From positions 32,001 to 96,000 of the IMG/VR virus record IMGVR_UViG_3300023174_000001: a stretch of DNA of 64,000 nt; one strand, written 5' to 3'. The notes below the pieces were generated by a model. The model was not told the origin of the DNA. It made no database searches and saw only the letters and a list, made by a program, of their open reading frames with translations. A program made the position numbers and the translations under genes. Each line of letters begins with the position of its first letter. Position 1 is the first letter of the stretch. The stretch comes from a virus. This document shows, piece by piece, positions 35,013 through 59,939 of this stretch.

Positions 35013-35017
35013 TTTTT

Positions 35018-41277: not shown

Positions 41278-41290
41278 CCCCCATCTAGCA

Positions 41291-41419: not shown

Positions 41420-41481
41420 ATTTCGCTCACAGCGAACAAGATAATCTTGACATCCGGGAATGAATCTGGAATGATTGAGTT
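41420..41481 (+). promoter_or_regulatory. ClgR-type box plus SigR/SigH-type promoter
   Basis: TTTCGC-N5-GCGAACA then GGAAT-N17-GTT. Confidence 0.65.
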
Positions 41482-41692
41482 ATAGATAGTATGAACCAAA
41501 TAGAAACACCAGAAAAAAAGATTTCCAAAACCGGGAATAAATCTGGGAGAAGTTTAGTTCTACTTATTACAACTGAATAAAAAGTCAAGGACACGCCAAA
41601 AAAAGTTTTTGAAATGAACTTGACAAGTGTAAGACCCTGTGCTTATACTTTCTAATACCAAATACAAATGCGTCAATTACTAAGGAGACCAA

Positions 41693-42217
41693 GTGAACGC
41701 AAAGACAGAAAAGGACTGTGCTGGCAAGGCACTTTACCTAGAGTTCCGTAAAGAGAACTACACCTACCAAATGATTGCCACTCCACCTGCGATAGATGTG
41801 AATGGCAACTTCATCCCTGCGTGTGCTATGGAGAGAAGACTCTCTTCTTATCACCCACGCAAAAACTGGAACTTTACCAGCGTTCCTGTGAACGACTCAT
41901 TCAAGATTGAGCGTGATGCTAGTGGCGATTTCTCACAGATAGATTTAACATCTGCTGGCGAGATTGGTGCTCTTCACATTCAGCGTTTGTTCGCTCGCAC
42001 CATTGACTCTCTATTCCACAGAGGTTGGACTTTGTTCAAGACACCTGTGGCAGTAGAAGTAACTTACAAGGACTTGGCAACAATCAAGTCTGGTAAGACT
42101 TCCAATGACCTTATTAGACGCATCGAGCGTTCTCGTAAGCACTTTGGATTCCCAGAAGAACTCTTCGACCAACCAGTCGTTGAGCCAACCACTGTCACAC
42201 TGACACCAGTAGTCTAA
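41693..42217 (+). CDS. Hypothetical protein
   Basis: AAGGAG RBS; upstream TTGACA...TATACT promoter. Confidence 0.65.
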   Translation: MNAKTEKDCAGKALYLEFRKENYTYQMIATPPAIDVNGNFIPACAMERRLSSYHPRKNWNFTSVPVNDSFKIERDASGDFSQIDLTSAGEIGALHIQRLFARTIDSLFHRGWTLFKTPVAVEVTYKDLATIKSGKTSNDLIRRIERSRKHFGFPEELFDQPVVEPTTVTLTPVV

Positions 42218-42233
42218 GAATAGGAGACCAATT

Positions 42234-43271
42234 ATGACTACAATCAACCCAACACAAACACCAACCCAGCAAGCAGTTGCTTGGACACGAGACCAAGTTA
42301 GATTGCACCCTAATCTGCCAGAACTACTAAACGCAGTCGTGGGTCAAACTCTAAACTCGGTTTCTGCATCTGACCTTAACCTTGTATTTGACGAGACAAC
42401 TGGTAAAGCAGTTATTCGTAATCGTGATGCAAATCCAGTTAGGAAAATTATGAACGCAGTCGATGCTCTCGCTGGCGAAAGTTTTTACCTGCGACCAAAT
42501 GGTCACAAGTATTACACTCGCTCGTGGGGTCAGCACACTGATGTTGAAGTTGTTCGCAACCAAAGAGCCAGTGAGCGTGGAAAATCAATCCTGCTCTATG
42601 GTGCTCCGGGAACTGGCAAGACTGCTATGTTCGAGGGTGCGTTTGGTGACGACCTAATCACAGTTCTTGGAACTGGCGACACCGAAGTTGGCGACCTAGT
42701 TGGTGGCTATGTTCAAACTGTTGCTGGTGGATTCGAGTGGATTGATGGGCCGCTGGTTCAAGCAGCAGAGCAAGGTAAAGTTTTGCTCATTGACGAGATT
42801 GGTCTAATCGACCCTAAGGTCTTGTCTGTTGTTTATGGACTTATGGATGGTCGTAAAGAACTCAAAGTAACTGCCAACCCTGAACGAGCAATCGTTAAGG
42901 CACAGCCGGGATTCTTTGTGGTTGCTGCGACTAACCCAAATGCTCCGGGAGTAAATCTTTCAGAGGCACTTCTATCTCGCTTTGGTATTCAAGCAGAAAT
43001 GACAACTGACTGGTCGCTTGCTCGTAAGTTAGGCGTTCCAGCACAAGCAGTAACTTGTGCACAGAACCTGTTCAAAAAGCAACAGTCTGACGAGGTCAAC
43101 TGGTCTCCACAGATGCGTGAACTTTTGGACTTCCGTGACATCGCAGAAGACTTGGGAACTGAATGGGCTGTAAGCAATCTAATTGCTCAAGCACCATTCG
43201 AGGACAGAGCGATTGTCGCAGATGTATTTACTCGTGTCTTTGGCACAGAGTTCAAGCCAGCCAAAATCTAG
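42234..43271 (+). CDS. MoxR/CbbQ-type AAA+ ATPase
   Basis: GAPGTGKT, WIDGPL, LLIDEI, ATNP, ALLSRF. Confidence 0.88.
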   Translation: MTTINPTQTPTQQAVAWTRDQVRLHPNLPELLNAVVGQTLNSVSASDLNLVFDETTGKAVIRNRDANPVRKIMNAVDALAGESFYLRPNGHKYYTRSWGQHTDVEVVRNQRASERGKSILLYGAPGTGKTAMFEGAFGDDLITVLGTGDTEVGDLVGGYVQTVAGGFEWIDGPLVQAAEQGKVLLIDEIGLIDPKVLSVVYGLMDGRKELKVTANPERAIVKAQPGFFVVAATNPNAPGVNLSEALLSRFGIQAEMTTDWSLARKLGVPAQAVTCAQNLFKKQQSDEVNWSPQMRELLDFRDIAEDLGTEWAVSNLIAQAPFEDRAIVADVFTRVFGTEFKPAKI

Positions 43272-43425
43272 GTCTCCCAAACAGAGATTTTGGCTAAAGG
43301 GGGGGAGTGGGTCGACAAAATCCCCACTCCCTCTACCCCAAAAAAAGTTTTGAAAAATAGGGAATAATACTTGACTAATGTCAGTTATAACTTATACAAT
43401 GTAGTTATTACACGAAAGGACTCAA

Positions 43426-45294
43426 ATGAGCCACTACAAATTAGATACTAAGCCAGTAGGTCGCACGCACTATGACTGGCTAGGCGTTGGTGCTAGCGTT
43501 GGAAAACTGGTCAACCAGTGGTCGCTACGCAACGACCTAGTTGTTGGTCTGGTCGAAGAGACCACCATTGGTGCACCTGCTTGTTTCAACCCTGCTAGTG
43601 CCGAGATTGAAGTTTGCATCAGCAAAGCATTTGGCAATGGAACTACTGCCAAAGAAGTTGGCGAACTAACTCAACGCAAGAACCAACTAAAGCACGCTGT
43701 TGCGACTGGTGCGATTTATCACGAGGCACTTCACGCTCGTGTTTCACGCTGGTCATTAGAGCAAGCATCCAAAGACCTAACTGCGAGAGAGTGGCGTTTC
43801 CTAAACTCTATGGAAGAGTCTCGTATCGAGTTCTGGGGTTGCAAGTATGTTCCACAGAACAGAACCCTACTTCGTGCTTGTGCGATTGAGATTGTCATTG
43901 GCGACTTGGAATCACACATTGAAAATGTTTCTAAGGTTGATGCCGCTGCGAACCTTGCGTTGCTAACTTTGGCTCGTGTTGATGCTGGCGTTCTAGACGA
44001 GAGAGACATTGTTGACTCTGTTCAGAAAATCCTTACCGAAGTTTTGAGCGAAGAAGTTATTTCTAAGTTGCGTGCTATCTGGAAAGATTTCCAGAACCAC
44101 CAAGACCACGCTAACGCTCTTCCACTTTACGACCTAACTCGTGAGTTCCTAAAAGTTCTAGACGAGCGTAAAGAAGAGACTGGCGAAGAAGAGGGTCAAG
44201 AACCAGAGGGCGAATGTGGCAAGCCGGGTGGAGAGCCGGGCACTGGAACTGGTAAGGGCGAACCTACACCAGAACAGATTAAAGAGTTCAAGGACTTTAT
44301 CGAAAAGGTCAAGGATGCTATCCAAGACATCAAAGAGCAGGTTCAGATTGCTAACCAGACTGAACTAGACGATGAACTCGATGCAGAAGAACGCAAAGAA
44401 GAAGTCGAGGCTCGTGAGCAAAAAGCAAACCAGCAGAAAGAAAACAAGAAAGAATCTAAAAAGGTTTTTGACAACACCTCAACTGATTCTCACATCACCA
44501 CTGCTGGAACTAAATCACGCTTAGTTGAATCTCGTAATCCAACTGGCGATGAAGTTGCTAGTGCTAATCGAATTGCTAACGCTCTGCGTAAAGCAAAGTA
44601 TCGTGAGCGTTCACAGACTCGCATTGGTAGTGTTGTTCCACCGGGTCGCTTGCGTTCTCGTGCTGTCGTTCAAGGTCAAGCACAAAAGGCTCGTGGTATC
44701 TTCACACCAGTCGAGGCTTGGAGAACTACTAAGCGTAAGACCACAGAAGACCCTACGCTGAATGTTGGCATTATGGTTGACATCTCTGGCTCTATGCGAC
44801 CAGCAATGACACCAATGGCTATTACTGCTTGGGTTATGTCAGAGGCTGTTCACAGAGTTCAGGGCAAGTCAGCAATGGTCTACTATGGTCAGGATGTATT
44901 CGCACCACTTAAGCCGGGACAGCGTTTGACTAAGGTCAACACTTTCACAGCACCAGACTCTACCGAAGAGTTTGATAGAGCGTTCAAGGCTCTAGACGGT
45001 GGCTTGGGTATCACTCACGCTGACGGTGCTAAGTTGCTTGTGATTGTTTCTGACGGTCATTACCGACCTGACCAGAAAGCAAAAGCACGCAAGATGCTGA
45101 AAGAGGCTGACCGTAATGGCGTGGCTATTCTGTGGTTGACCTTTGACGGTAAAGTTGCTGAACCGACTGAACTGTTGAGCGGAACTGCTGGCAAGGTTGT
45201 ATCACTGGCGAGCAACGAATCACCGACCAGAGCATCACAGGTTATCGGTGAGACCGCAGCCAAAGTTCTGTCGGCTATCGGTTCAAGGGTCTAA
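43426..45294 (+). CDS. VWA-domain protein (CobT-like) with N-terminal HExxH
   Basis: HEALH, EESRIE, acidic linker, MIDAS DISGS, VSDG. Confidence 0.85.
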   Translation: MSHYKLDTKPVGRTHYDWLGVGASVGKLVNQWSLRNDLVVGLVEETTIGAPACFNPASAEIEVCISKAFGNGTTAKEVGELTQRKNQLKHAVATGAIYHEALHARVSRWSLEQASKDLTAREWRFLNSMEESRIEFWGCKYVPQNRTLLRACAIEIVIGDLESHIENVSKVDAAANLALLTLARVDAGVLDERDIVDSVQKILTEVLSEEVISKLRAIWKDFQNHQDHANALPLYDLTREFLKVLDERKEETGEEEGQEPEGECGKPGGEPGTGTGKGEPTPEQIKEFKDFIEKVKDAIQDIKEQVQIANQTELDDELDAEERKEEVEAREQKANQQKENKKESKKVFDNTSTDSHITTAGTKSRLVESRNPTGDEVASANRIANALRKAKYRERSQTRIGSVVPPGRLRSRAVVQGQAQKARGIFTPVEAWRTTKRKTTEDPTLNVGIMVDISGSMRPAMTPMAITAWVMSEAVHRVQGKSAMVYYGQDVFAPLKPGQRLTKVNTFTAPDSTEEFDRAFKALDGGLGITHADGAKLLVIVSDGHYRPDQKAKARKMLKEADRNGVAILWLTFDGKVAEPTELLSGTAGKVVSLASNESPTRASQVIGETAAKVLSAIGSRV

Positions 45295-45396
45295 CGGCTC
45301 GTGTAGGGGTCGGCTTGCTAAACGGCAAGCCTATCCCTATAATAAATAACGGCAAGCCTAACGGCTCGCCTAAACGACAAAGAGACGGCAAGCGTA

Positions 45397-45837
45397 ATGG
45401 CGTGCCAGATAAGGAGACTCACGGTGGGTCAGTATCACATTTTAGTAAACATAGATAAGCAGGAGTGGGTAGACCCTCACGGCTTAGGTCTAGGCTCAAA
45501 GCAATGGGAGAGTCAGGTTGGTTGCGAGGGTTCGCTATCAGACGCTATGTATGTCCTCACAATGACAAGCCCGGATAGTGGTGGTGGAGATTTACCACGC
45601 ACAGACATTTCAGGTCGCTGGTGTGGAGATAGGGTTTTGATTGTAGGAGACTACACAGGGGCAGATGCAGTTCCAGGATTTACTGGGGCTGACGCTATCT
45701 ACCAACTGGCTACGCAAAGTCCTGATTACAAGAACATAACTGGCGAAGTTCGTGAGGCGTTCTCCAAAATCTTCGAGATTGCTTATGTCCAAGAGAACAT
45801 TGGCAGTCATACATTCTGGAAGAGAACTCTGGTCTAG
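45397..45837 (+). CDS. Hypothetical protein
   Basis: GQYH..VN.DK.E, GRW.GDR...GDY; true start probably GTG near 45424. Confidence 0.6.
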   Translation: MACQIRRLTVGQYHILVNIDKQEWVDPHGLGLGSKQWESQVGCEGSLSDAMYVLTMTSPDSGGGDLPRTDISGRWCGDRVLIVGDYTGADAVPGFTGADAIYQLATQSPDYKNITGEVREAFSKIFEIAYVQENIGSHTFWKRTLV

Positions 45838-45997
45838 CCTCTAAATAAAATAATCCCCTGCGAGTCAGGGGATTTTTTATGCTCGAAAAATAGGGTGTCC
45901 ACTTTTTCCATGCAAGATGGTTTCCATGCTTCGCATGGAAAAACACAAGACCCTAGTGCTTCTTATGCTTTTTCTTCTCCCTCTGGGCTCATCTTCC

Positions 45998-46059
45998 TGT
46001 TCGCTAGGGGCGAACAAGAAACATTGACAATCAGGAATGAAATGCCATACGCTTAGGTT
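45998..46059 (+). promoter_or_regulatory. Perfect ClgR-type palindrome plus promoter
   Basis: TGTTCGC-TAGGG-GCGAACA; TTGACA at 46024; GGAAT-N18-GTT at 46034. Confidence 0.7.
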
Positions 46060-46071
46060 ATAGTTAGAGTA

Positions 46072-46377
46072 ATGACAAAACGATTGGAGACCAAAATGGA
46101 ATACTCAACCCTTTTCCCAACAGTAGTTCTAGTTGCTCGCTCTCAGGGCGAGCGTGGGCAGTATGGTGGCAGAAAGGCATACAAGATTTATGTAAGCAAG
46201 TTTTCAGATAATCGCTGGTGCGTGTTTATGTCTTGGGGCAAAGAAGAAATGCCTAACTCTTGGATGGGCAGTGAAAAGATTTTTGCCACAGAGCAGAGAG
46301 CAGTTCAGTTTGCTTGGGACAAGTTCTACGAGAAGATTGACAAAGGCTACACAGAACGAGTTTTTGAAACTAATTAA
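46072..46377 (+). CDS. WGR-domain-like protein
   Basis: K.Y.I, SWGK, EKIDKGY. Confidence 0.6.
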   Translation: MTKRLETKMEYSTLFPTVVLVARSQGERGQYGGRKAYKIYVSKFSDNRWCVFMSWGKEEMPNSWMGSEKIFATEQRAVQFAWDKFYEKIDKGYTERVFETN

Positions 46378-46457
46378 AAATAAACTTGACATTTGGGAAT
46401 AAATCCTGAATAATCTAGTTATAGTTATTATAGAAGTTCTTTTGAAAGGAGAACAGA

Positions 46458-48613
46458 ATGGCTGAACGATTCACCACTCAGGTAATAAAGGTAAGCACAG
46501 ACGCAGACTACGCTATGTGGATTGCCGAAGATGGCTCTTATGGAATGTCCGACATACTCGTATTTAGAGAAGAAGACTTGGAAGACGAGCACTGGGAGAT
46601 TTTCAATGAACTCGGAGACAACGAGAGATTTGAGTTCGTCAAAGCAGTAATAAACAAAGAAGACCTATCACAATGGAAAGAGCAGGTATAAAAATGAACG
46701 AAGAGTTCAAGTGCCCTACTTGTAGTGGCTACATCCCTAACAACGATAACATTGGTGCTTACGCTGGTGCTATCTCTCGCAAAGACAACAAGACTGAAAT
46801 CTGTTCCGCTTGTGGAATGGATGAGGCTCTTGCTGACTTCAAGCAACATCTCAGAAAAGAATCTGGTATCGCTTGGCAGTCAACTGTTTTGGAAGAAATG
46901 GTTGAGCACCTAGACGACAACGAGATTTCATTACTCGTCAACGCTCTAAATGACGCAGTTGCCGAAATCTGTGAGTCATACGACATCAAGTAAAAACTTA
47001 GGCGTGTTGGGCTTGACAAATGTCAGCCCAGCACCCTATACTAAATAAGTAATAATAAAAGTTCTCTTGAAAGGAGACCTGCCAAATGGCAAACTACTAC
47101 GAATCAGCACGCACCAACTACTTCTTGGTTAAGGACATTGACGCGTTCAAGAAAGAACTTGAAATGGTCAAGTCTCTTGAAGTGTGTGTCGAACACAAGA
47201 ACCTGAAAGATTATGTCTGCTTGCTCGGTGACAGCGAGGGTGGATTTGCTTTCGACTACTATGACGACAGCCTAGAAGATTACATTGAAATCGACTGGGA
47301 GGGTATTTTCAAAAAGCACCTACAAGATGATTCAGTAGCAATCATTATGGGTGCTGGTTCAGAGAAACTCCGTTACATTCGTGGCTACGCCTATGCGTTC
47401 AACAACAAGGGTGAGACCAAGTTCCTCAGCCTAGACGACATCTACGAAATGGCTAAGCCTCTTGGCTCAGACATTCAGAAAGCAGAATACTAAAATGGAA
47501 ACTAAAATCACTAAGCACACTTTCTATCCAGATGGAGAGAATGGCAACATCCCTGATGTTGAGTTAGTCAGCGTTCTAGGAGACGACAGAGACATGAGTG
47601 CTCACTTCCTATGGCGTGGCACTAAGCAATGGCTCGCTATGAGCAAGGACAACCCTTATGGCGATAACCAATGGCTAGTAGTCGAGACTGACTACTCCGA
47701 AGAGTTCCAAGAGTGGCTTGACGAAGAGTTGAGTGGCTATGACAGTTTGGAAACTATGTTTGGCACGATAGATTTTCTGCCTAACGAGTCCTACCTATTT
47801 ATTGTAGAAAGAGCAGGTGTCTAATGACACAGGTAAGCAAAGCAATCGAGTATCTATCTAAGTTAGACCCTAACGAAGAAATAGCGTTTACTGGTTATTG
47901 GGTGAAGAGTGATGTTGAGGAAAACAACAACATCAAACTTACTGACGAACAGTGGGAGACGATTTGTTGGAAACACGAAGACAACATTGAAGTCCACATT
48001 GACGAAATAGTCGAGTTGGTTTTATCACAGGAGGAAACAAATGAGTAAGCAAGTTTATTTCGTAGTTTATTACGACACCGAAGATAAGCAACTTTACCAA
48101 GACACTGGGACTTTATTGGCTCGTTTTGGTGAGGGCTCTATCTGGGACAGCGAAGAAGAAGAGTGGAATCATGAAACAGAAATCTCTGTCTTAGCAGAGG
48201 CTCAGAACGCAATGGACACTGTAATCAGTAATACAGCAGTCTAAGCATTGACAGCGAGAGCCACTTACCCTATACTTGTAGGGTAGGTGGCAATCGCCAT
48301 TTCAAAAAAGAAGTAAAATGATTTAGAAAAGAAAGTTGGTAACTTTATGAAAAAGTTCACAGTAATCGCAGAAATAAACTTCGAGGTTTATGACACTGAC
48401 GAGTTTTCGGCTGAGCGTCAAGGGCGTATTGCCCTAGCACGATTCGTTGGAGACCCTGATGCAAATGGCTACAAAGACGAATACGCAGACTTGCCTACTC
48501 CGTCTATCCATCCAATCAGAGTTAGAGTCGCAGACGAGAATGGAAAGTTCTTGGCTGGCTGGAATCCAGCAGACTTAGACGAGGCTGAACCGAAAGAAAA
48601 AGACGCAGAGTAA
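46458..48613 (+). CDS. Cluster of small acidic hypothetical proteins (46458-46691, 46673-46993, 47086-47493, 47462-47824, 47824-48048, 48041-48244, 48347-48613)
   Basis: Co-oriented ORFs, several with GAAAGGAGA RBS or coupled stops. Confidence 0.6.
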
Positions 48614-48642
48614 TCTGCCCCGAATAGAAAGACAAAAAGACA

Positions 48643-48927
48643 ATGAACCTAGCACAAGCACTCGGTCACACGATTAGAAAAAATCGTCTTGCCAATGGTA
48701 TGACACTCAGAGACCTGAGCGTAAAGTCAAACACTTCACTTGGCTATCTATCTGAGATTGAAAGAGGAACGAAAGAAGTTTCTTCCACAGTCTTGGAGAG
48801 TATTGCTAAGGGATTGGGAACACCTCTCTACACGATTGTCTCAGGCTCGGCTTTGGAGATGATGTATTCATCTACCGAAATCATTGACGAACCCAGCAGA
48901 CACATGGAAAACCTAGTAACCCTATAA
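48643..48927 (+). CDS. clgR: ClgR-like XRE transcriptional regulator
   Basis: TLRDLS...SLGYLSEIERGTKEVSS..L.SI matches the ClgR-type signature SLGYLSE(V/I)ERG.KE.SS. Confidence 0.72.
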   Translation: MNLAQALGHTIRKNRLANGMTLRDLSVKSNTSLGYLSEIERGTKEVSSTVLESIAKGLGTPLYTIVSGSALEMMYSSTEIIDEPSRHMENLVTL

Positions 48928-49179
48928 AAAGCATAAGAAAGACAAAGATGAATACTTTAATGATGTTGTCAAACGAATCGACTGTTGATGTGAACCTACT
49001 CGCTGAGAGTCAGGAACTATTCGACCTAATCAAAAAGAACACCCCTTACAACGAACTTTTGGAGTGGGTGAACGAGAACTTCTAGTTCTCTGTGGGCGAA
49101 CAAAAAAGTTTGGCATTTCGGAATAAAATGTCGTTGTATCGTGTTATAGTTTATGTAGCAAGAAAAACGAAAGTTCCGA

Positions 49180-49560
49180 TTGCTACCTCAGACCAAAAGG
49201 CTCTGGGAAATACATAAAGACGAAGGATGTGGCAAAGTGGCAAAAACACTTACCCCAACTGTAAAAGGCAAGTCAGTCGAACTAGGCTGGTCTGCCGAAG
49301 TTAGACAAGCGTTAGAGAAGTATCGTAACGCCCTAGAAGCGAAGAAGGAAGCAGACAAGGCTAAGGCTGAGGCTGAGGTCATTCTTCGTGAGCAACTCGG
49401 TGACGCTGAGTTCGCTACCATTGGTGGCTCAAAGGCATTCAAGATGTCTCAGGTCATTATGGAAAGAGTGGACAACGCAAAGTTGTTAGCCGAGTTCCCA
49501 GCAGTTCACGCAGAAGTTCTGGTTGACGGTTCTTACGAGTTCATCAAGACCGTAAACTAG
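49180..49560 (+). CDS. Hypothetical protein
   Basis: ORF; start probably a later GTG. Confidence 0.55.
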   Translation: MLPQTKRLWEIHKDEGCGKVAKTLTPTVKGKSVELGWSAEVRQALEKYRNALEAKKEADKAKAEAEVILREQLGDAEFATIGGSKAFKMSQVIMERVDNAKLLAEFPAVHAEVLVDGSYEFIKTVN

Positions 49561-50295
49561 AAACGGCTTGGCTAGCCGTATCACCTGATACCTTAGTGCC
49601 TAAGATACACGGCTAGTCAAAACGGCAAGCCCCTTAACCGATAACGGTTAGGGGGTTTTGCTTTACCCTAACGGCTAGCCCTGCACGGATAAGACGGCAA
49701 GCACAAACGGCAAGCCCCTATACGCAATGACGGCAAGCCTTATGCGTTCTTATGTAATAAGCCCCCGCAGAAGCCAACGGGTCGTCTTTTTTACGCTCTA
49801 TGTATAGACGCACACAAAAACCTGACGGGTCGTGTTTTTAAGAAACAGAAGCAGAGGAGAAGCAGAAGCCAGATGACTGATGACACATGGGGGAAAAGCA
49901 TAAGACCTTATGAAATAAAGCCAGATGGAAGCGAAGATGGAAGGGAGATGGAAGCGAAGGGGGAGAAGTAAAAGCATAAGAAAGCAAAGAACCAAGCAGA
50001 TGAGATAGAAGACGCAAAAAAATGTGGGTGTAAAGATTTTCCTTGCGAGCCTCAGATTTTTTGTCCATGCCTCGCATGGAAAAACAAGGGACTTGACTTT
50101 TTTTGGATTTTGTTTTTTTTGTTTTCTTTTTTTTATTTTGGATTTGGATTTGGATTTTTATTTCTCTTATGTTTTTAATCTTGATTTGTTCCCAGTTATC
50201 GTGTTCGCCCTGAGCAAACAAAAAAGATTGGCACTAGGGAATAAAAACCTTGCTTATCGTGTTATCTTATGTATAGGCACTAAGGAGGTGATTTT

Positions 50296-50451
50296 ATGAA
50301 GTGTAAAGTTTGGTTAGTCGTCAAGTATGACAACTCTATTCCTGCGACCTGCGTGGAGTTTGAGTGGGCAGATTTGGCTGTTGCGACTGCTTTTGTTCAA
50401 TGGTTCAACCTGAACAATAGCGACAGACACGCCTCAATAGAGGCAGAGTAG
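50296..50451 (+). CDS. 51-aa protein (not in ORF track)
   Basis: AAGGAGGTGA RBS; MKCKVWLVVKYD... Confidence 0.6.
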   Translation: MKCKVWLVVKYDNSIPATCVEFEWADLAVATAFVQWFNLNNSDRHASIEAE

Positions 50452-50526
50452 TCCTGAGACCTGAGCAAGTCCTAAAAAGGCTCACACACACATTTCCTGG
50501 GTCCAGGAAACTACATAGGAGACAAA

Positions 50527-51418
50527 GTGAAAAGAAAACTAGAACTGGAAGTCAAAACTGTTGATACCATTTTGGACATTTTAGGTGGATTGCTTCACGC
50601 TGGGATGGAGATGGAAAAGTTTTTGGAAAATGAAGGGCAACCTGTTCCTAAAAAACTTAGAAAACAAAATGCTAGAACTTTGATGGCTCACATGGAACTG
50701 GCAATGGCACTTCGTTCAGTTGAGATTGCTGAACTGGAAGAAGTGTTCGCTCTCGAACAAAACTAAATAAAAAGATTCCACCTCGAAAGAGGTGGGATTT
50801 TTTTATCAAAAAAATAGGGTTAGAGGTTTTTCCATGCGTTCCATGAGTCCATGCCTCGCATGGAAAAAGCGACCACCTGGCTTCGCCCGGCTTCGCCCGG
50901 CTTCGCTTGCTTCTTCTGGTTCTTATGCTTTATCTGGCTGATGAGTTCTCCCTCCCTGTTCGCTGTGAGCAAACAAGAAAGTTTGCTGTATGGGAAGAAA
51001 AAGGGACTGTATTGGGTTATTATTTGTATAGGCACTAAGGAGGTGAAAAATGGAAAACTTACAGACAACAGAGGTGACGCTTACAAGCGACTGCACTTGC
51101 GTTGATGAGGATGGCAACTACATTGAAGAATGTTTTGGTTGCTGGGATGACTCTAAGTATGACTTAGGGGAGTTAGTATCAACTGTTCAGACTGAAAAAG
51201 GCTGGACTCAGGTTGCTGTCGAATACAAGGGAGTTTCATGGCGTAGAGTTTCTGGCGAGTTCTTTATGGACTTCGATACCGAAAACTTGATTCGAGCATT
51301 CTCCCTCAATGGTGACTTCAGATTGGTATTTACCTATACCAATGGAGAGTTATCACTTGTTCGATACTCGCATGATGAGCCAACTGGGACTGGCAAGATT
51401 ATCTTCAAGGCAATCTAG
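50527..51418 (+). CDS. Two hypothetical proteins (50527-50766, 51050-51418)
   Basis: Strong RBS before each. Confidence 0.6.
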
Positions 51419-51540
51419 TCTCCCTAACCTGAGCAAGTTATAAAAAGGCTCAAAAAAACTTTTGGGATTCGGGAATAAAAACTGAGTTCCTAGTGTTATA
51501 GTTATTGTAGTTCGAAAAAAGTTTCTTGAAAGGAGACCCC

Positions 51541-52005: not shown

Positions 52006-52009
52006 GCCG

Positions 52010-52345
52010 ATACGGTTCACCCCCTAGAAAGCCCTTGCTGGAAACGGCAAGGGTTTTTTAGTATCTGGCACGGCTGGCTTGCTGAACACGGCTGGCAAGA
52101 CTAACGGCTGGCTTGTAGAGACGGCTAGGGTTTGACGGCTGGCAAGGGTAAAGGCTTGCTAAAAGCCAACGGCTAGCCTTTTTGACGGCTTGCTCTAACG
52201 GCTAGCCCCTTAAATGACTAACGGCTCGCCTTTATGACGGCAAGCGTGTAAATAATCAACGGCAAGCCTTATAAGAGTTAAAAAGCCAACGGTGAGCCTT
52301 TTTTGGACTGGTATGTAGGTAAGCGTGAAAAAAGCCAACGGTAAG
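52010..52345 (+). repeat. Dense ACGGCWNGC repeat field
   Basis: About 14 co-oriented copies at short irregular spacing; similar fields ~40580-40750, 45290-45400, 49560-49740. Confidence 0.8.
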
Positions 52346-52349
52346 CCTT

Positions 52350-53280
52350 TTTAATAAAATAATAAAAAGTCGCAAGAGGACTTGCGAAAAAGCATAAGAA
52401 ATGCAAAAAAGCATAAAAAGGCGAAGAAATGCGAAAAAAGAGGCGAAGAAGCGAAGGCGAAGAAAATAAATAAAAGCAAAAAGAGGCGAAGGCGAGGAAA
52501 AATAAAAGCATAAGACACATAGAAAAAATGGATACCTGCAAAAAAAAACTGATGCCTCAGCGAAAAAACCTGATGCCTCAAAAAAAGATTCATGGGAAAT
52601 GAAAGTTTCACTCTGGCGAAAGAAGTTTCAGGCTGGCTGAGGCTGGAAAAGTGCGTCTAGATAGGCTCTGGGAAGCCTATTCAGGCGTGAAAGCGTGAAA
52701 AGTGGGGGAAGGTGCGTAGTTTCAGGAAAAAGCGAAGGGGAGGGAGTCGAAAAGAGGGTGAGGGGTTTTTCCATGCAAGTTTTTAGTCCATGCTTCGCAT
52801 GGAAAACTAGATGACCGGGCTTGCTTCCAGGTAAGCCTCCCATCCAGGATTTCCAGGGCCTGGAGGAAGAAAAAGCATAAGGATAAAGAAAAAAGCGAAG
52901 GAAGCGGCTCATCTCATGTGAAAAAGAAATGAAAAAGAAAGAAGAAAGAAAGAAAAAGCAAAAAGTATAGAAGAACTGATGAGTAAAGTCAAGCGAGTCG
53001 AAAAAAGTTTTCCATCTTGCATGGAAAATAAAGCCGCGTGCTTCACTTTGCGGCACAAGGAAGTTGAGTGGATTCATGTATCCTCAGGTCGAGGAAGAAA
53101 AAGTATAGATAATGTTTTATGTTTGTCAAGTCGATTTGTAAAAAAGTTGATGAGTCCCATGCAACTCTGCTTCTGGAAAATAGGGTAGCCGCATTTTCCA
53201 TGTGCCGCAGTTTGCTTTTTCACTTGACTTTTCCTGCTTCTTGTGTTTTTTCTTATTATAACTTTTTGATAACAGCGTCT
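52350..53280. other. Non-coding purine-skewed low-complexity tract
   Basis: A/G-rich plus strand with AAAAGCATAA, GCGAAG and CTGATGCCTCA repeats. Confidence 0.7.
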
Positions 53281-53347
53281 TCAGTCGGGAATAAATGTTG
53301 GGCTTCATGGGTTATCTATCATGTAGGCACTAAGGGAGGTGATTAGT

Positions 53348-56300
53348 ATGGTCAAGTTCTATTTTATTTTTGATGGCTTCGGTTATCCACTTTGCGAGAA
53401 GCACTCAGGAGGGTTGCTTCTTGGGGTGGATACTCACCTGAGTTGTCATGCTTGCGACAAACTCGATAAGGAGTAGTCGTCAGCGAAGTTGCTCCCCTGA
53501 TTAAGTTCAGGGGGGCAATTTTTTTTGCATGGGCAGGAAAAAAGTTGCCGTGCGTGCATGGAAACTCTTGCCGCCTGGCTTGATGCCGATACATGATGAA
53601 TCGCAATGGGATTTGTGTGCCGAAGATTTTTTTTTGGAACGCCGTTTATTTTCTTTTTCTTTTTTTCTGCAACACGGGAATAATTTGTCACCTGTGAGTG
53701 TTATTATATATGTAGGCACTAAGGAGGTGATTGATATGGCAAAAACTTACAAGATTGGACTTGTGTTTTCTTTCGAACCTGAGGGAGAACACGCCGACAT
53801 CTTCGAGGGCATGGACAAGACCGAGGAACAACTCATCGTGTTAATGAAGAACCTCGTGTGTGAGGACATCGATAGATATGTGAAATACAACGAAGTCTTC
53901 GAAGGTCTTTCAGTAGAAATTATAGAAGAGTAATCTTCGCCGAACCCTCTGGGAATAATTTGTCAGGGGGTTCGGTTAATATCTTTATAGGCACTAAGGG
54001 AGGTGAGAACTATGGAACTAACAGAACTAGAAGCATTAGCAGTAAAGTCTATCTACACCGATTACCACGCTGGAGCAACTAACGCCGATGAAGCGTTGCA
54101 CGCTTTAGAACAACTAATCAATGGCGGGCTAACACCTTGCGACAAGTGTGGCGACAAGATACAGACAGATATCCACGCCGAAGAACTCGGTATGTGCGTT
54201 GATTGCTCTAACGAGTATTTCAGTCATGAAGAGTAGGAACTAACGCCGACTCATCTCAAGACCCTCGAACAGAAATGTTCGGGGGTTTTGTTTTACGCCG
54301 AGAGGCTGAGCCGCTTCCATCACGCATGGAATAAGCGGCTACCCCGGTTCGCCTCCGTGCGAGGAAAAATACTTACGCCGATTGGGAATAAAAGTGAGGC
54401 GATTGTGGTTTATATTAATGAAGGAAGATTGGAGAAAGAAATGTTTGTAGAGAAAAAAGGTGATGCTGAACTAGCAGAACTATTTGCTTTGGGACTTATC
54501 GCCGAACCAGAAGATAATGGAACGCTTGTGTTAGTGCCGTGTGCCGACCCTGTTATGTGTGAGATACACGGAACTTATTGGATTGAGAAAAGAATAAAAA
54601 AAGTCTTGACACCGACCAAGTAAAGTTGTATAGTAGTAGTATGTCAATGAAAGGACACCGATAATGAACCAAGATAAACTAATCGCCGTTTGTGAAAAAC
54701 TCTATGACAAGCGTGGTGCTAGTGCTATTTACGACTACATCAACGCTAATCACCGAGAACTAGATTGGTATTTTTGCCAGCCTTGCGACACCGATACACC
54801 AGCAACTAACCAACTAAAATGCTTAGTTTGTGGAAGTGCCGTGCTTCTAGGGTATCAAGATAAGTTCGCCGAGTTCATGTAATCCAAATCGAACCAAGAC
54901 CTCGTGCTGAAAAGTGCGAGGTTTGGTTTTTAGCAATCCAGGTGCACGGAAAAACAGAACACCCAGGCACTTGACAAAAAGAGTTTCATCAATAACAATA
55001 GAAACAACAACACCGAAAGGAAACAAAATGAACTACGAGTTCTTATTTACAATGTGGGAGTGTATTGGTTGCCGTCTGCTTTACAACGACGAGCAAGACA
55101 AATGCACCAACTGCAAAAACAAGTGCGAGCCAATTAAAATCAAAGGCGTAAGGGCATAAACTCCGTTATCAAAAAGTTATACGGAAATGCTTGACAATGC
55201 CGTTCATTACAATAAACTAGAAGTGTAGTGAAACAACTAACAAGGAGATAAAAATGAAGATTCTTATTGGATTACTAGGTATCTGGTGCTTTTGGAACGC
55301 TTTGCGTATTACCGACCAACTCGGTCATGTAATGGTTTTTGGTGGCGACCAAAGTGTTCTTTGGGCTGGATTAGTTTTATTCTTATCTGGAACTTTTGGC
55401 TGTGTTATTGCCATCTGTGCTGAAAAGAAGTAGCCAACACCGAAAAGTCCCCTCATCTCAGGTGGGGGGATTTTTTCTGCCCATGCCATTTTGGTAGGCG
55501 GCAGGTTTTTCCATGCTCCCGTGTTGGATTTTTTTTTTCGGATACGGGAATAATTTCTCCATCATCGTGGTTGTCTTATGTATGAGCAAAGAAAGGAGAA
55601 ATCCAATGGACACCGACAAGAACAAAACTTGGGAAGAGTGGCTAAATACGCCTGGGAACGCTAAGAAGTTTCTAGAGTGGGTATTTGACCCTAAAGTAGA
55701 TGCCGAACTAGAAGCCCTTGCAAAAGAAACCAACTAAGGAAAGAGAAACTGTGAGAACTAAACTAACTCAGGAAAGAATCACCGAACTGGACAAACTTGA
55801 CCGAATTAGAACTTACGACTTGCTATACCGAGCGATGTCTGTGGGGCTAATTCCGTTTCAGCCGAACCTTAGGCTAAAGCGTATGGTCAGAGTAAAGAAG
55901 TCTGGCAACTAAAAACACCGAAAACATTTTTTACCAAATGGGAATAAAATGTCGGACTAATGTGTTATTATCAGTATGTGAGTAATCACAAAGACAAAAA
56001 GACAAAGGAGATAAAGTGGCTTCATCAGCAACTTACACCGTTACACTAACGACTAACTCTACGAGTTACATTACAACTATCACCACTCCGTCTAGCGACG
56101 AAGAAACTATTTACGAGTTGGCGATAGAACGCATCAAAGAAGAAGATGGCTTTGATTTATCTGGACACCGATTAGTTGATACAACTTACGAAGTATTGGA
56201 AGTGTGGGACTAATAATGAGTGCTACCGATTACAACGACCTAAGCAGACACATTGGACACAAGGTGGAAGTAGTTACTTACGCCGATACTAATGTCGCCA

Positions 56301-57438
56301 TTGAGTGCGAAGAGTGTAGTGAAGTGCTACTGGACTTTGATAAAGAAGTTGAGTGCGAGAACCACACTTGGACTTTACAAATGAATCTTCCGAACATACC
56401 AATTCGCAACTACTGCGAAGAGTGTGGTGCGATAGGAGAAGCCGACCCCGATGATGTAGCAGAACAAATCCGACTATTAGGAGAGAACGAATAATGATGA
56501 ATAACACCGAACTACTTAATTATCTACAAGACAAGGTAGGTGAATTGTTTGAGAACATCAGACATGACGACACCTATGGCGATTTCAGAGATGGTGCTAA
56601 AGATTACCTAATCCAAATCACAGACATAATCGCAGAACTACAAAGGGAGAACCTAAATGAATCAGGAAACTAAAATCAACACCGATAAGTTATCCCCTGA
56701 GTTTTATGTGTGGGAGAACGACTACGAAGAAGTCTGGGCTACTGAGAGTAATCCTTTCTTCGTAATCCGTAATGGCGAGATGCGAATCATCGTCAAGAGT
56801 GCCGATGAATCACAAGAGATAATCAGATACACCGATGCTCTGGAGAAGTTTGGCATCACTACCGATAAAGAACTAGAAGAGTGGTCTGGGAAGAGTGAAG
56901 AACTATTCTCAGTTGGTATGAATCCTTGGTTTGAGATTTGGTCTGTGAAAGACACCGAGTTTTACTCAGAGCCATACTTTGACCTGAAAGAAGCCATCGC
57001 ACAAGCCGAAGTAATGCTTGCCGAGTATCCAACTGGCATCGTAGATTAGTCAGAACTAAAAAGGAAAGCCCATGCTGAAGAGCATGGGTTTTCTTATGTT
57101 ATTCCGAAACACCTGGGTATCCACTTTTTCCGTGTGCCGTGATGGTTGCCTTCATCTGCTAAGTTGTTCTCATGTCAGTATTTCATCAAGCGACCCCCGT
57201 AAAACTCGTAAATGCAGATGAAGAACGCATTTCCTTCATCTATTTCTTATCTGGTGGGGAATACGACAGTAAGTTTGTGCTGGTTTCTTCCGTTATTACA
57301 CCGAATTATGAAGAAACAGCAGTATTCATCTGCAACGACTCAACTGGCGAAGAAGCAGAGTGGGAGAACACATTGGCAAAAATCTATCATGTGGATACAG
57401 AAGAAGTGCTAAACAAGATGGGATACACAACAAAGTAG
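53348..57438 (+). CDS. Array of small hypothetical genes (53348-53476, 53736-53933, 54012-54236, 54441-54623, 54664-54882, 55028-55159, 55254-55433, 55606-55737, 56016-56213, 56204-56494, 56657-57049, 57172-57438)
   Basis: Mostly with their own promoter and strong RBS; many carry CxxC pairs. Confidence 0.6.
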
Positions 57439-57442
57439 CCGC

Positions 57443-58006
57443 TTGACATGGAAAATAATAAGACTTATTATTAGCCGCAAAGAAGAAATGACGAAAGGAA
57501 CTCAGATGGGCACAAATGTTCATGGTCTGAAGCCAAAGCACTCCGTAGGCGAGCAGTTTGGTAGAAATGTTTGGGGCTGGACTCCGTTGATGGGCTACAT
57601 CTCAGCACAGCACAAGAAGTTTGAGAAGTTGTTTGAGAAAAACCGACTCACAGAACTGCAAGCCAACAAAATTGCCGATGCATTATTTGACGACATCGCA
57701 TCTGGCAAGGCCGAAGCATACGCCGATAAGTTTATGAATAAAATCGCTACCCTCCCTGAAGTCCCATGTGAATTTTGCGAGGCCACAGGCATCAGAAAAG
57801 ATGCCGTAGGCATGGAAAAGGGTATGACCCACCTAGTGCTAGACCCCCGCCTCGCTCAACAACTTGGAAGACAGCGTGGGTGGTGCAATGGATGCTTTGG
57901 TTATGGGATGAAGAAGAGTTCCGACAGTGCTTACTATCTAGAACTTACGGATGTAGTGGAATTCGCCGAGTTCTTACGCAACTGTGGTGGAGCAAAAATA
58001 TCTTAA
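57443..58006 (+). CDS. Hypothetical Zn-finger protein (paralog of 58272..58811)
   Basis: RNVWGW, CEFCEATG, CNGCFGYG, EFAEFL..CGG. Confidence 0.65.
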   Translation: MTWKIIRLIISRKEEMTKGTQMGTNVHGLKPKHSVGEQFGRNVWGWTPLMGYISAQHKKFEKLFEKNRLTELQANKIADALFDDIASGKAEAYADKFMNKIATLPEVPCEFCEATGIRKDAVGMEKGMTHLVLDPRLAQQLGRQRGWCNGCFGYGMKKSSDSAYYLELTDVVEFAEFLRNCGGAKIS

Positions 58007-58271
58007 AAAATCTTTTGCGACACGCTTGACAAATGTCAGATGTGTTGTGTAGATTATCTATGTATCCACTCGACAACGAAAGGCAGATACAAATGTACGA
58101 AGACTACGAAGACGAAAAACAGTATGTTAGAGAACTTTACTGGGAGTCAAAAGGTTTGGGCGGTTACGACAGAGTTACCGTAGAGCCGATTGTTTTAGCA
58201 GGAGAAGAAATCTCTTGCCCTAAGTGCAACAGGATAAGAGACAAAGCAATAATCGAACAACACTTGCCTAA

Positions 58272-58811
58272 GTGCAGTGGGACTGGAGAATAAAAATGGG
58301 TATGGATGTTTATGGCACTAAGCCGAAGAACGAAACTGGAGAATACTTCCGCCGTAATGTTTGGGGCTGGAGAGGTCTTTGGGACTACTGCTTAGATACT
58401 TTTGAGATTGCTAACAAAGTAGAAGATGGGCACTCTAATAGTGGAGATGGTCTAAACGCCGAGAACAGCAGACAACTTGCTGAGCAGATGAAAGCAGACA
58501 TAGCAAGTGGTGCCGCTCAGGACTACATCACAGCACGCAATCACAAACTGGCTAGTTTAGAGAGACTCGCTTGCGATACATGTGCTGGCACTGGTATTCG
58601 TACCGATGATGTTGGTGTCTTCCACGATATGCCGACAAGAGAGTTGTCTCCAGAGATGGCATCACTAACTGGTCGCACACACGGATTCTGTAATGCTTGC
58701 TCTGGTGAGGGTAAGACAGACGACTGGGAAACTAACTATCAGTTCGACCTAGAAGACATTAAAGAGTTTGCCGAGTTCGTTGAGAACTCTGGTGGATTTA
58801 GGATTTGCTAA
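58272..58811 (+). CDS. Hypothetical Zn-finger protein
   Basis: MGMDVYG, RNVWGW, CDTCAGTG, CNACSGEG, SGGFRIC. Confidence 0.7.
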   Translation: MQWDWRIKMGMDVYGTKPKNETGEYFRRNVWGWRGLWDYCLDTFEIANKVEDGHSNSGDGLNAENSRQLAEQMKADIASGAAQDYITARNHKLASLERLACDTCAGTGIRTDDVGVFHDMPTRELSPEMASLTGRTHGFCNACSGEGKTDDWETNYQFDLEDIKEFAEFVENSGGFRIC

Positions 58812-58814
58812 AAG

Positions 58815-59075
58815 ATGGAGAATAAAATGAAAGCAAAGACAAAAACAGAAACAAAAATGAATACCGTTGCTTGGGATTGGTTTATCGCAAGATATACCAA
58901 GATGGGCTACAAATCACTCAACCAGTTTGCTATCGCAACTGGACTACAAAAGAGTAGCCTAAGTCGCTACTTTCATCGCCAACGCCAGATGCCGTCAGGC
59001 ATGATGGCAACACTTTGCCGAGAACTCAAAGTAACTCCTAACGAGTTGATGCGAGCCCTTGGGGAGTGGCAATAA
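58815..59075 (+). CDS. XRE/Cro-like HTH protein
   Basis: SLNQFAIATGLQKSSLSRYF...P. Confidence 0.75.
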   Translation: MENKMKAKTKTETKMNTVAWDWFIARYTKMGYKSLNQFAIATGLQKSSLSRYFHRQRQMPSGMMATLCRELKVTPNELMRALGEWQ

Positions 59076-59239
59076 GACCCCGCTATAAGTAGCAAACACC
59101 TGAGGTATGTGTCTAAAATGCCTCTTTTTCTCCATAAACACCGATTTATGGGGTAAAATAGACCTCACAACTGAATATAGTGTCACTTCGACAATAAACG
59201 ACCCCAGTGCTAACTAACAAGGAAAGGTAAGGTCGCTAA

Positions 59240-59800
59240 ATGAAAAAGTATGTATTAAGTGCCAGCATAGTTTTAACTCTCGCTGGTTGTACTGCATCTG
59301 CCTCAATAGCAGATATGCAAACAGCATTAGTAACACCTATTAGTGCCGTAAAAGAAAAACAAACAGCATCTAAAGAAGTATCAGTTACTCACTCTCTAAT
59401 CAAAGAGGCTAAGAGTAGGCGTAATACCGTTAGGATGCAAAAACTAATAAAGTATCTGAAGACCCGTGTAAATAGGACTTCCTATGTGTTTTCAGGTTCC
59501 AGTCCCCGTGGGTGGGACTGCTCAGGTATGGTTCGATGGACTTACGAGCAATTTGGTTTAGAAATACCACACTCCGCTAATAAGCAAGCACACATAGGAC
59601 AAAGAGTGTCTAAACCAAAACAGGGAGATATCGTTGTATTCGCATACAAAGGCTCCACCTCTTTCTACCACTCCGCCATCTATATTGGAAATGGCAAAAT
59701 TATCAACGCACATTACGAGGCTGACTCCACGATTATTCAGCCACTTACCGACTACAAAAGTAGTCAGATAAGGTTCGTAAGGTTAGTGCCCACCATGTAA
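59240..59800 (+). CDS. NlpC/P60 (C40) peptidase with signal/lipobox
   Basis: LAGC lipobox-like, YVFSG, DCSG, GDIV, HSAIYIGNG. Confidence 0.9.
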   Translation: MKKYVLSASIVLTLAGCTASASIADMQTALVTPISAVKEKQTASKEVSVTHSLIKEAKSRRNTVRMQKLIKYLKTRVNRTSYVFSGSSPRGWDCSGMVRWTYEQFGLEIPHSANKQAHIGQRVSKPKQGDIVVFAYKGSTSFYHSAIYIGNGKIINAHYEADSTIIQPLTDYKSSQIRFVRLVPTM

Positions 59801-59939
59801 AGGAACTCCCCGTCAGAAATGGCGGGGATTTTCTTTTACCGATAGACCTGGGTGGCAGGTTTTTCCTTTCAGGAATGTGCTTGACAACGGGAATATTTTG
59901 CTATAACTTATAGTTATTACACATGACGAAAGGCTTCAA

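Follow-up and report, generated by a model that had tools for sequence, protein, structure and literature searches.

What reads a promoter class of the stress-sigma type on a phage that appears to carry no sigma factor of its own? This question is raised by a window of 64,000 nucleotides, comprising bases 32001-96000 of a 135-kb (135,069-bp) freshwater virus of the IMG/VR collection (IMGVR_UViG_3300023174_000001; 43% GC), in which sixteen copies of a two-block element, GGAAT-N18-GTT, lie ahead of a long series of small genes. The original prediction, made from the letters of this window, took the sixteen sites as promoters of the SigR/SigH type, the class recognized in actinobacteria by extracytoplasmic function (ECF) sigma factors, and coupled them either to the thiol/heat-stress sigma of the host or to a phage ECF sigma encoded outside the window. 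Assignment to this class gained support from the identity of the virus as an actinophage, from the fit of the sites to the SigH consensus, from the SigH proteins of candidate hosts, and from two further phages in which the same sites accompany a SigH-like sigma gene, whereas the option of a phage-encoded ECF sigma was not borne out. We consider it probable, on sequence grounds, that a host SigH-type sigma reads these promoters, which would double as promoters of the housekeeping sigma-A.

An array of sixteen two-block sites

A pattern scan located fifteen of the sixteen sites as GGAAT-N17-19-GTT, all of them on the + strand, and the sixteenth, at 50993, reads GGAAG-N18-GTT, as had been described. 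The spacer is N18 in 14 of the 16 and N17 in the other two (41457 and 46396). The sites, with scores from a two-block weight matrix where they are cited in the text and with the hexamer that begins at the last T of GTT, are as follows.

41457..41481, + strand: SigH-type site, N17; 24.9 bits; overlaps TTGACA-17-AATGAT at 41447-41475
41534..41559, + strand: SigH-type site, N18; CTACTT after GTT, no TAnnnT; gene 41693 lies 122 nt downstream
43361..43386, + strand: SigH-type site, N18; upstream of the 622-aa CobT-like gene at 43426
46034..46059, + strand: SigH-type site, N18; GTT followed by ATAGT (hexamer TATAGT); TTGACA 4 bp upstream
46396..46420, + strand: SigH-type site, N17; 28.9 bits; hexamer TATAGT; overlaps TTGACA-17-AATAAT at 46386-46414
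49120..49145, + strand: SigH-type site, N18; hexamer TATAGT; TTGGCA 4 bp upstream
50238..50263, + strand: SigH-type site, N18; hexamer TATCTT; leader AGGCACTAAGGAGGTGA, then a 51-aa gene at 50296
50993..51018, + strand: SigH-type site with GGAAG at -35, N18; 26.0 bits; hexamer TATTAT; gene 51050
51472..51497, + strand: SigH-type site, N18; top score, 29.7 bits; hexamer TATAGT; DUF6011 gene at 51541
53288..53313, + strand: SigH-type site, N18; hexamer TATCTA, no T at -7; 42-aa gene at 53348
53677..53702, + strand: SigH-type site, N18; hexamer TATTAT; gene 53736
53952..53977, + strand: SigH-type site, N18; hexamer TAATAT; within the hairpin CCGAACCCTCTG ... CAGGGGGTTCGG; gene 54012
54385..54410, + strand: SigH-type site, N18; TATATT after GTT; gene 54441
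55547..55572, + strand: SigH-type site, N18; GTCTTA after GTT, no TAnnnT; gene 55606
55941..55966, + strand: SigH-type site, N18; hexamer TATTAT; gene 56016
59890..59915, + strand: SigH-type site, N18; hexamer TATTAC; TTGACA 3 bp upstream

Comparison of the motif count with shuffled sequence, which the original prediction had proposed as a check, placed the array far above chance expectation. Over the whole window and both strands, GGAAT-N17-19-GTT occurs 18 times against 6.42 +/- 2.52 in shuffled sequence, and none of 100 shuffles reached 18; on the + strand of 41001-60500, GGAAT-N17/18-GTT occurs 15 times against an expected 0.83 +/- 0.91, the maximum among 1000 dinucleotide-preserving shuffles being 5 matches. 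In the weight matrix the sixteen sites score 21.9-29.7 bits, the next scores in the 135,069-bp genome (12.6 and 12.1 bits) being one-base-shifted readings of true sites and the top unrelated match on either strand reaching 11.9 bits, a gap whose size is partly circular because the matrix was trained on the same sixteen sites. Among the 17 + strand words of the form GGAA[TG][AG][AT] between 41534 and 59890, GTT follows at N18 in 14 and at N17 in one, and only 53093 (GGAAG) and 59872 (GGAATGT) lack it.

The intergenic placement claimed for the sites also held; the eight that are tagged as coding in a crude map of open reading frames (ORFs) overlap spurious short ORFs. For 14 of the 16, a start codon lies 13-38 nt downstream (counted from index +14, with G of GTT as the origin), and a Shine-Dalgarno-like word precedes 13 of those 14 start codons, being absent at 49120 (start at +23). 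The sites at 41457 and 41534 form a tandem pair whose members lie 200 and 122 nt before gene 41693. The genes behind the sites mostly encode proteins of 42-174 aa without a family match, the exceptions being the 622-aa CobT-like protein and the DUF6011 protein; when 20 proteins were scanned against Pfam, six reached a family's curated cut-off and eight had no match at E<=0.05. The 70-aa protein of gene 59940, behind the 59890 site, is hydrophobic and membrane-like by eye. Two freshwater metatranscriptome runs cover 0.11 and 0.07 of the stretch as assembled contigs, which span promoters (e.g., the records at 49071-49318 and 51423-45) and one of which starts at 43416; as such contigs carry no start, strand or level information, they are neutral between all readings of the sites.

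Anatomy of the conserved unit

The conserved unit proved longer than originally described. Counted over the sixteen sites, the GGAA core is invariant and is preceded by G in 14; it is followed by T in 15 (G in the exception), then by A in 14 and by A again in 15. The downstream block is GTT in 16 of 16 at each base, followed by A (13/16) and T (14/16). With positions counted from the G of GTT, T recurs at +7 (12/16) and at +11 (15/16), a purine occupies +12 throughout (16/16), and T at +13 (12/16), A at +14 (12/16) and G at +15 (10/16) complete the unit. Upstream, an A-rich tract lies 14-20 nt before GGAAT (A in 9-11 of the 16), and a TTGACA-like hexamer is often found 3-4 bp before the box (four perfect and four partial copies, by eye). 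The blocks are separated by spacers whose sequences are unrelated from site to site. Outside the unit, five sites have the leader AGGCACTAAGG(G)AGGTGA in common, while an upstream hairpin, GTTCGC...GCGAAC, and TTTTCCATGC...GCATGG elements recur at others. The palindrome CCATGC-N2-6-GCATGG occurs in six copies (41324, 45924, 50065, 50849, 52788 and 57070) with TTTTT/AAAAA flanks, usually as part of a larger repeated cassette upstream of promoters.

An actinophage with SigH-type sites

The genome is complete, with direct terminal repeats and an estimated completeness of 100%, and megablast of 41000-60000 found no near-identical relative in the phage collection. Its gene content places it among actinophages. 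The primase shares 67.6% identity with its counterpart in Actinomycetia phage DSL-LC01 and about 50% with those of Microbacterium phages of about 190 kb, and all 21 records matched by the CobT-like protein are Actinomycetia, Microbacterium or Gordonia phages. DSL-LC01 itself was assembled from a metagenome, and Actinomycetia are its predicted hosts (PMC10611076). In addition, the window carries two WhiB-family genes (1062-1529 and 19150-19470). These two WhiB genes and the kinship with Microbacterium phages and DSL-LC01 indicate that the host is an actinobacterium, despite the 43% GC, and for the same reasons we rejected a Bacillus-type or low-GC Firmicutes host, to which the GC content and the strong Shine-Dalgarno sites might have pointed. 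WhiB proteins bind region 4 of sigma-A, so the two found here might serve to remodel transcription in the host; the 155-aa protein carries at its C terminus an extra segment with CxxC...CxxC (zinc-ribbon-like) and a tail rich in lysine.

The sites agree in detail with the SigH consensus of Corynebacterium glutamicum, which is given as gGGAAta ... t/cGTTgaa, i.e., GGAAT-N18-19-GTT, with GGAAN tolerated by sigma-H (PMC10012870). Compared with this consensus, the -35 block agrees including its flanking bases and the GGAAG variant, the spacer is N18 in 14/16 and N17 in 2/16 against the 18 to 19 nt of the consensus, and the -10 GTT is found at every site. More broadly, actinobacterial SigH/SigR/SigE promoters of Corynebacterium, Mycobacterium and Streptomyces share gGGAATa, the 18-nt spacer and GTT, with GGAA fixed and the fifth base variable. 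The phage sites differ in lying on a lytic-type genome, with 16 copies within 18.5 kb, and in a -35 extended to GGGAATAA(A/T). The base before GTT is never C in the phage sites (0/16), unlike the cGTT of SigE-shared promoters.

The same motif occurs in candidate host lineages. Five freshwater actinobacterial genomes were reached via WhiB loci (Planktophila, Nanopelagicales, two Microbacteriaceae and acSTL). SigH_actino was found in all five, over the curated cut-off in four, and in four of the five GGAATA-N17-GTT stands within 400 bp upstream of sigH, the spacing being that of 14 of the 16 phage sites. In these four candidate-host promoters GTT is followed by C or T, whereas in the phage it is followed by ATnnT, which completes a sigma-A hexamer in 9 of 16. 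Two further links between the phage and particular hosts were sought in the genome data: the phage transfer-messenger RNA (tmRNA; tag AESRSAFALAA, window 20691-21036) matches the five genomes over its last 30 nt alone, in two of the five, and its histone deacetylase-like protein as a query against genome contigs found no relative. The tmRNA, whose tag ending in AFALAA fits an actinobacterial host, is followed in the window by a tRNA-Gly(TCC) at 21844-21915.

The same sites in phages with a SigH-like sigma gene

A scan of IMG/VR for GGGAATAA-N16-GTTATA returned at least 119 stretches, and all 119 were then scanned. Among the matches listed, most were single and apparently due to chance, and clusters were seen only in relatives of this phage and in two other phages, G006 (IMGVR_UViG_3300025418_000694; 95,817 bp, complete, GC 43.6%) and G007 (IMGVR_UViG_3300032265_000877; an 87.6-kb record, 92% complete). 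G006 has eight GGAATA[AT]-N16-GTT sites on one strand (35549-45384), and G007 has four such sites, in four loci covering about 20 kb of the 87.6-kb record.

Both phages encode an ECF sigma (G006 35617-36111, G007 84465-84983). Their TIGR02937 scores of 87 and 80 bits lie over the cut-off, and the best NCBIfam family of both is SigH_actino (108.7 and 100.4 bits, at the top of 74 and 57 families, respectively), although below the equivalog cut-off of that family, which is 251 bits. Aligned over 169 residues, the G006 sigma and the Planktophila SigH ortholog share 38% identity; for a Microbacteriaceae ortholog the figure is 36%. In both phages, one GGGAATAA-N16-GTT site directly precedes the sigma gene, and an array of such sites comes after it. 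A sigma gene behind a site of its own type is the autoregulatory layout typical of ECF sigmas, and the G006/G007 sigma looks, by its sequence and position, like a phage-borne version of the host's stress sigma under autoregulation; evidently a SigH-like sigma would be what reads the sites in these two phages. A search for relatives with the G006 sigma, alone or aligned with the G007 sigma, found those two contigs only, a result that is no measure of how common such phages are because the peptide patterns of that search were poor.

G006 and G007 are both freshwater actinophages, and G006 has a WhiB-like match. The ribonucleotide reductase of G006 is 74.6% identical to that of the phage studied here, while 15 other matching segments show 22-53% identity; such a value between otherwise nearly unrelated phages suggests a shared gene pool or host group. 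The ribonucleotide reductase pair is located at window 15960-18008 and G006 48168-50195. As two nearly unrelated phage lineages share both box and spacing, and one of them does so together with a SigH-like reader, it is unlikely that an unrelated box-binding factor accounts for the motif.

No sigma gene detected in the complete genome

The suggestion that a phage ECF sigma is encoded outside the window failed, in that the genome is complete and no sigma was detected in it by profile or sequence searches. In six-frame translation of the complete genome, neither PF04542 (Sigma70_r2) nor PF08281 (Sigma70_r4_2) matched at E<=1. Sigma70_r4 (PF04545) gave a single match of about 25-26 bits over 21 residues, and TIGR02937, the general sigma-70/ECF model, found the same helix-turn-helix fragment at 13.7 bits, whereas the identical TIGR02937 search found the G006 and G007 sigmas at 87 and 80 bits. 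With the G006 sigma as query, the best hits in the genome had E values of 0.8 (tblastn) and 0.55 (phmmer).

The fragment belongs to an ORF of 223 aa whose true start gives a protein of 182 aa (genome 95937-96485, window 63937 onward), situated at the end of the array. The protein is retained at 70-87% identity in three motif-carrying relatives; DSL-LC01, which is without the motif, gave a 14.8-bit partial match alone, and G006 and G007 have no homolog. Its AlphaFold model (predicted local distance difference test score 75.7, predicted template modelling score 0.46) consists of two helix-turn-helix domains joined by a disordered linker. Foldseek returned nothing for this model at E<=0.001, and its weak rows (E 0.06-1, template modelling score ~0.2) include many sigma-A chains; VIA-align matched it to the DNA-binding domains of ParB/Spo0J and KorB at Z 5-6 and to the G20C small terminase at Z 3.9, all within a range that the tool's own grading treats as non-distinctive. 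We therefore rejected the 182-aa protein as a sigma and treat it as a predicted double helix-turn-helix DNA binder. Its gene is followed by a gap (genome 96836-97005) with two direct repeats of about 55 bp and then by a 468-aa ORF, which by position and length may be the large terminase; the 182-aa protein and the repeat gap could thus be a small terminase with its pac site.

An overlay of sigma-A-type signals

The original prediction had remarked that several sites are interleaved with TTGACA-type elements, and three such promoters were indeed located, each overlapping a site: TTGACA-17-AATGAT at 41447, TTGACA-17-AATAAT at 46386 and TTGACT-18-TACAAT at 43371. Their offset from the GGAAT sites is about 10 bp. 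They belong to a larger set of about 12 canonical TTGACA-N16-18-TAnnnT promoters in the same array, which had been missed.

41620..41649, + strand: canonical sigma-A-type promoter, TTGACA-18-TATACT
43371-43400, + strand: TTGACT-18-TACAAT, embedded in the region of the 43361 site
47013, 48248, 54606, 54971, 55191, 58026 and 60350: further canonical sigma-A-type promoters, in addition to the three that overlap SigH-type sites

A further canonical match, at 57443, coincides with an ORF start.

Within the SigH-type sites themselves, a TAnnnT hexamer begins at the last T of GTT in 9 of 16, where base composition would give about 1 in 16 (an estimate from position frequencies). The corresponding count in G006 and G007 is 0 of 12 (Fisher p=0.0028), and none of the four candidate-host sigH promoters has TAnnnT. 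The seven sites that lack TAnnnT, three of which also lack A at -11, are in part accompanied by other signals: those at 41457 and 43361 are each overlapped by one of the TTGACA promoters listed above, 59890 has TTGACA 3 bp upstream at a non-standard spacing (by eye), and the canonical promoter at 41620 comes 60 nt after the 41534 site. A canonical sigma-A -35 is not part of the unit, as the TTGACA-like position reads GAATAA or AATAAA at the sixteen sites, and a sigma-70 scan lists one of the 16 by its own hexamers (46037, ATGAAA-16-TATAGT, 9/12). The two kinds of promoter nevertheless share a geometry, TTGACA-AATGTC...TATACT in the canonical and GGAATAA-AATGTC...TATAGT in the SigH-type case, with the upstream boxes nearly equidistant from the hexamer.

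The two modes of recognition also predict nearly the same start. With the T of GGAAT at -31, as in published SigH numbering, GTT spans -12 to -10 and +1 falls at index 12 from G, the position that is a purine in 16 of 16 and is preceded by T in 15. When the sites are numbered for sigma-A instead, -12 is the final T of GTT and index 14 becomes +1, a position that is A in 12 of 16 and preceded by T in 12. The two predicted starts lie only 2 nt apart, and mapping of transcription start sites alone cannot separate the readings.

How the promoters might work

We propose that the sixteen sites constitute a promoter class of the actinobacterial SigH/SigR (ECF) type. Its unit would comprise an A/T-rich stretch, the -35 element gGGAATAA, an 18-nt spacer, the -10 element GTT and a T-R-T-A-G start region 11-15 nt after the G, and each copy would head a short leader with a strong Shine-Dalgarno site followed by one or a few small genes. 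As the complete phage genome is without a sigma gene, the most likely reader would be a host SigH-type ECF sigma on the host RNA polymerase core. The class would be hybridised with housekeeping signals, in that 9 of 16 sites conform to the actinobacterial sigma-A extended -10 (TAnnnT with G at -14) and at least three of the sixteen lie under a full TTGACA-N17/18 promoter offset by about 10 bp. Basal firing may then come from sigma-A, with a boost once thiol-oxidative or heat stress frees SigH from its anti-sigma. The contrast between TAnnnT in 9 of 16 sites here and 0 of 12 in G006 and G007 suggests that access to sigma-A has been kept where no own sigma is supplied; the simplest account is that a phage without its own sigma keeps sigma-A access, which sigma-supplying phages do not need.

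The phages related to this one suggest how the class arose. Relatives were collected as IMG/VR contigs through the CobT-like protein. Those at 95-99% identity (L003, L004 and L012) have 8, 12 and 3 + strand motif matches, and the two at 75% (L006 and L007) have 7 each. Orthologous sites differ from one another solely in the spacer and at the last position of GGAAN, with GGAA(T/G)-N17/18-GTT kept at the same places; L005, at 73%, retains two sites, one of them as GGAAC. In L008-L011, at 50% and 43%, the motif is gone. The GGAAT class, kept in close relatives and gone in distant ones, thus arose recently in a single sub-lineage, where it was placed on an older, ancestral framework of sigma-A promoters.

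Several observations weigh against reliance on a host SigH. The first concerns the ancestry of the -10 block. At the same places, L008-L011 carry TTGACAAATGTCAG...TATACAAT (L008) or TTGACA-N17-TATGAT; the + strand of the first 50 kb of DSL-LC01 contains TGTTATA 25 times and GGAAT-N17-19-GTT not at all; and Microbacterium phage Pumpernickel has ordinary TTGACA...TAnnnT promoters. Because the homologous arrays of relatives run on plain sigma-A promoters, GTT could have been inherited from the sigma-A -10 context TGTTATAAT. Similarly, when the sites are read as a sigma-A extended -10, the counts are high throughout (G-14 16/16, T-12 16/16, A-11 13/16, T-10 14/16 and T-7 12/16). The second group concerns SigH itself. 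SigH is normally sequestered by its anti-sigma, and a lytic phage whose 16 promoters relied on it would depend on stress or on some trigger; in this phage, neither a zf-HC2 anti-sigma-like protein nor another candidate trigger of SigH was found. The SigH orthologs considered above come from candidate genomes chosen through WhiB rather than from the true host, and one of the five, Planktophila (G001), has no site upstream of sigH. Finally, a very divergent phage sigma or a sigma-4 mimic could escape profile searches.

Comparison with known systems and alternative explanations

Three known systems invite comparison. Phage ECF sigma regulons, as in G006 and G007, have the likeness of identical ECF-type promoters before small genes, with the box GGGAATAA at N18; they differ in the sigma gene behind the first site and in TAnnnT (0/12), where the present phage has no detectable sigma and TAnnnT in 9/16. 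Further phage-encoded ECF sigma regulons are those of phiEco32 gp36 and its relatives. The middle promoters of T4 combine a MotA box with a sigma-70 -10 and depend on AsiA. They resemble the sites described here in having a non-canonical box at -35, a good extended -10 and a tandem arrangement with canonical early promoters, but the box here is a known sigma -35 at its known spacing. The arrays of DSL-LC01, for their part, lie in a homologous region with an AAA ATPase, a CobT-like gene and many small genes, give each small gene its own promoter after a terminator hairpin and share the TGTTATA(A/G)T -10 context; they differ in having no GGAAT box (+ strand, first 50 kb) and in a -10 flanked by the palindrome GATTCTA-N12-TAGAATC. 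In DSL-LC01 (L002, 22565-41578), each small gene is preceded by a GC-rich terminator hairpin and GATTCTAAAGATGTTATAATAGAATC; in this element a 7-bp inverted repeat encloses a perfect extended -10, which looks like an operator around the -10.

The likeness to T4 leads to the alternative that survives best, although we judge it unlikely: the sites would be sigma-A promoters of a box plus extended -10 design, at which a phage factor reads GGGAATAA in place of the -35 contact, giving a phage-timed middle class. Either WhiB-like protein or the 182-aa double helix-turn-helix protein could be that factor. The sigma-A-like -10 in 9 of 16 sites and G-14 in all 16 speak for such a design, as do the box-to-hexamer geometry, which equals that of the phage's own canonical promoters, the tandem placement of canonical promoters with the sites, as with early and middle promoters in T4, and the use of sigma-A promoters for homologous arrays in relatives. 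On the other hand, box and register would then match the SigH -35 and its spacing by coincidence, and the same extended box and spacing recur in G006 and G007, where they are tied to a SigH-like sigma and occur without a homolog of the 182-aa protein. Moreover, 7 of the 16 sites have no TAnnnT, and 3 of these have no A at -11. The conservation of the 182-aa protein at 70-87% in three motif carriers, set against the 14.8-bit partial match in the motif-less DSL-LC01, would fit this role, but that correlation rests on close relatives only, and the ParB/KorB matches at Z 5-6 are not distinctive.

We regard it as distinctly improbable that the phage encodes a sigma of its own that is split or has diverged beyond the reach of the profiles applied. 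Strong divergence is common among phage sigma factors, bringing a SigH-like sigma is a solution seen in phages of the same habitat (G006 and G007), and most of the small array genes have no family match; yet PF04542, PF08281, PF04545 and TIGR02937, applied at E up to 1-10, yielded one helix-turn-helix fragment in the complete genome, the G006 sigma found nothing, and the sigma-A overlay (9/16 versus 0/12) is what would be expected if there were no dedicated sigma. Least credible of all is a non-promoter repeat, such as a repressor operator, a recombination element or the boundary of a duplicated cassette, for although several sites sit in larger repeated cassettes (the shared leader AGGCACTAAGG(G)AGGTGA, the hairpins and the TTTTCCATGC elements), the blocks and their distance are fixed while the spacers are unrelated, the distance to start codons is constant, all sites are on the coding strand, and the motif is common to the sigma-linked sites of G006 and G007.

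Other features of the window and the genome

Beyond the promoter array, a third promoter-like class was noticed, in which GATACTAGCA lies about 39 nt upstream of (C)GTGCTAGTAT, the two being mutual reverse complements. It is found outside the array, at window 34698-34860, 19804 and 20472 and at genome 25695-25745, and a divergent control region of 417 bp (34601-35017) holds three to four copies of this GATACTAGCA/GTGCTAGTAT class.

In addition, a 9-mer, ACGGC[ATC][AGC]GC, forms arrays at window 39687-40737, 45322-45385, 49622-49730 and 52070-52259, so that 28 of the 30 + strand copies in the genome lie inside four long non-coding stretches of the promoter array. These repeats may be putative sites for a DNA-binding protein, for example, the ParB/KorB-like double helix-turn-helix protein. 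In the 50% relative L008, a TTGACGGCTCGCC array similar to these 9-mers is present.

A Mom-family protein (150 bits; window 37207-37872) and a histone-deacetylase-family protein (156 bits; window 62355-63350) are encoded in or next to the array. Downstream, three giant ORFs of 2823, 4227 and 1620 aa occupy genome 103432-111903, 112534-125217 and 127304-132166, respectively. PHROG scans of the three proteins revealed no polymerase or other transcription function; the 2823-aa ORF had no match, the 4227-aa one matched one family of unknown function, and the 1620-aa one contained a portal/protease-like segment.

Implications for phage transcription

SigH/SigR promoters and phage-encoded ECF sigmas are both already known. 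The apparent novelty lies in finding such an array in a phage that lacks a sigma and in its combination with sigma-A -10 boxes; in the literature searched, which left most subscription journals outside, no report of host-ECF-dependent phage promoter arrays was found. Whether a lytic-type actinophage puts an 18-kb block of small genes, which probably serve host takeover, under the control of its host's SigH through 16 hybrid promoters is, in our estimation, close to an even question, and we put this broader proposal forward tentatively.

The temporal programmes known from phages make use of the host housekeeping sigma, phage sigmas, phage polymerases and sigma-remodelling factors, and a large class of promoters directed at a stress (ECF) sigma of the host would add one more strategy to these. 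If the proposal is true, no phage promoter class built for a host ECF sigma would have been described before this one, and neighbouring lineages would achieve the same by bringing a SigH-like sigma of their own. The contrast already offers a comparative system, with a sigma-less phage and its hybrid promoters on one side and, on the other, G006 and G007, which have an autoregulated SigH-like sigma and no sigma-A box. Under the proposal, phage expression would read the redox state of the host, as set, for example, by sunlight-driven oxidative stress in surface freshwater, and infection would be coupled to the physiology of hosts that rank among the most abundant bacteria of fresh water.

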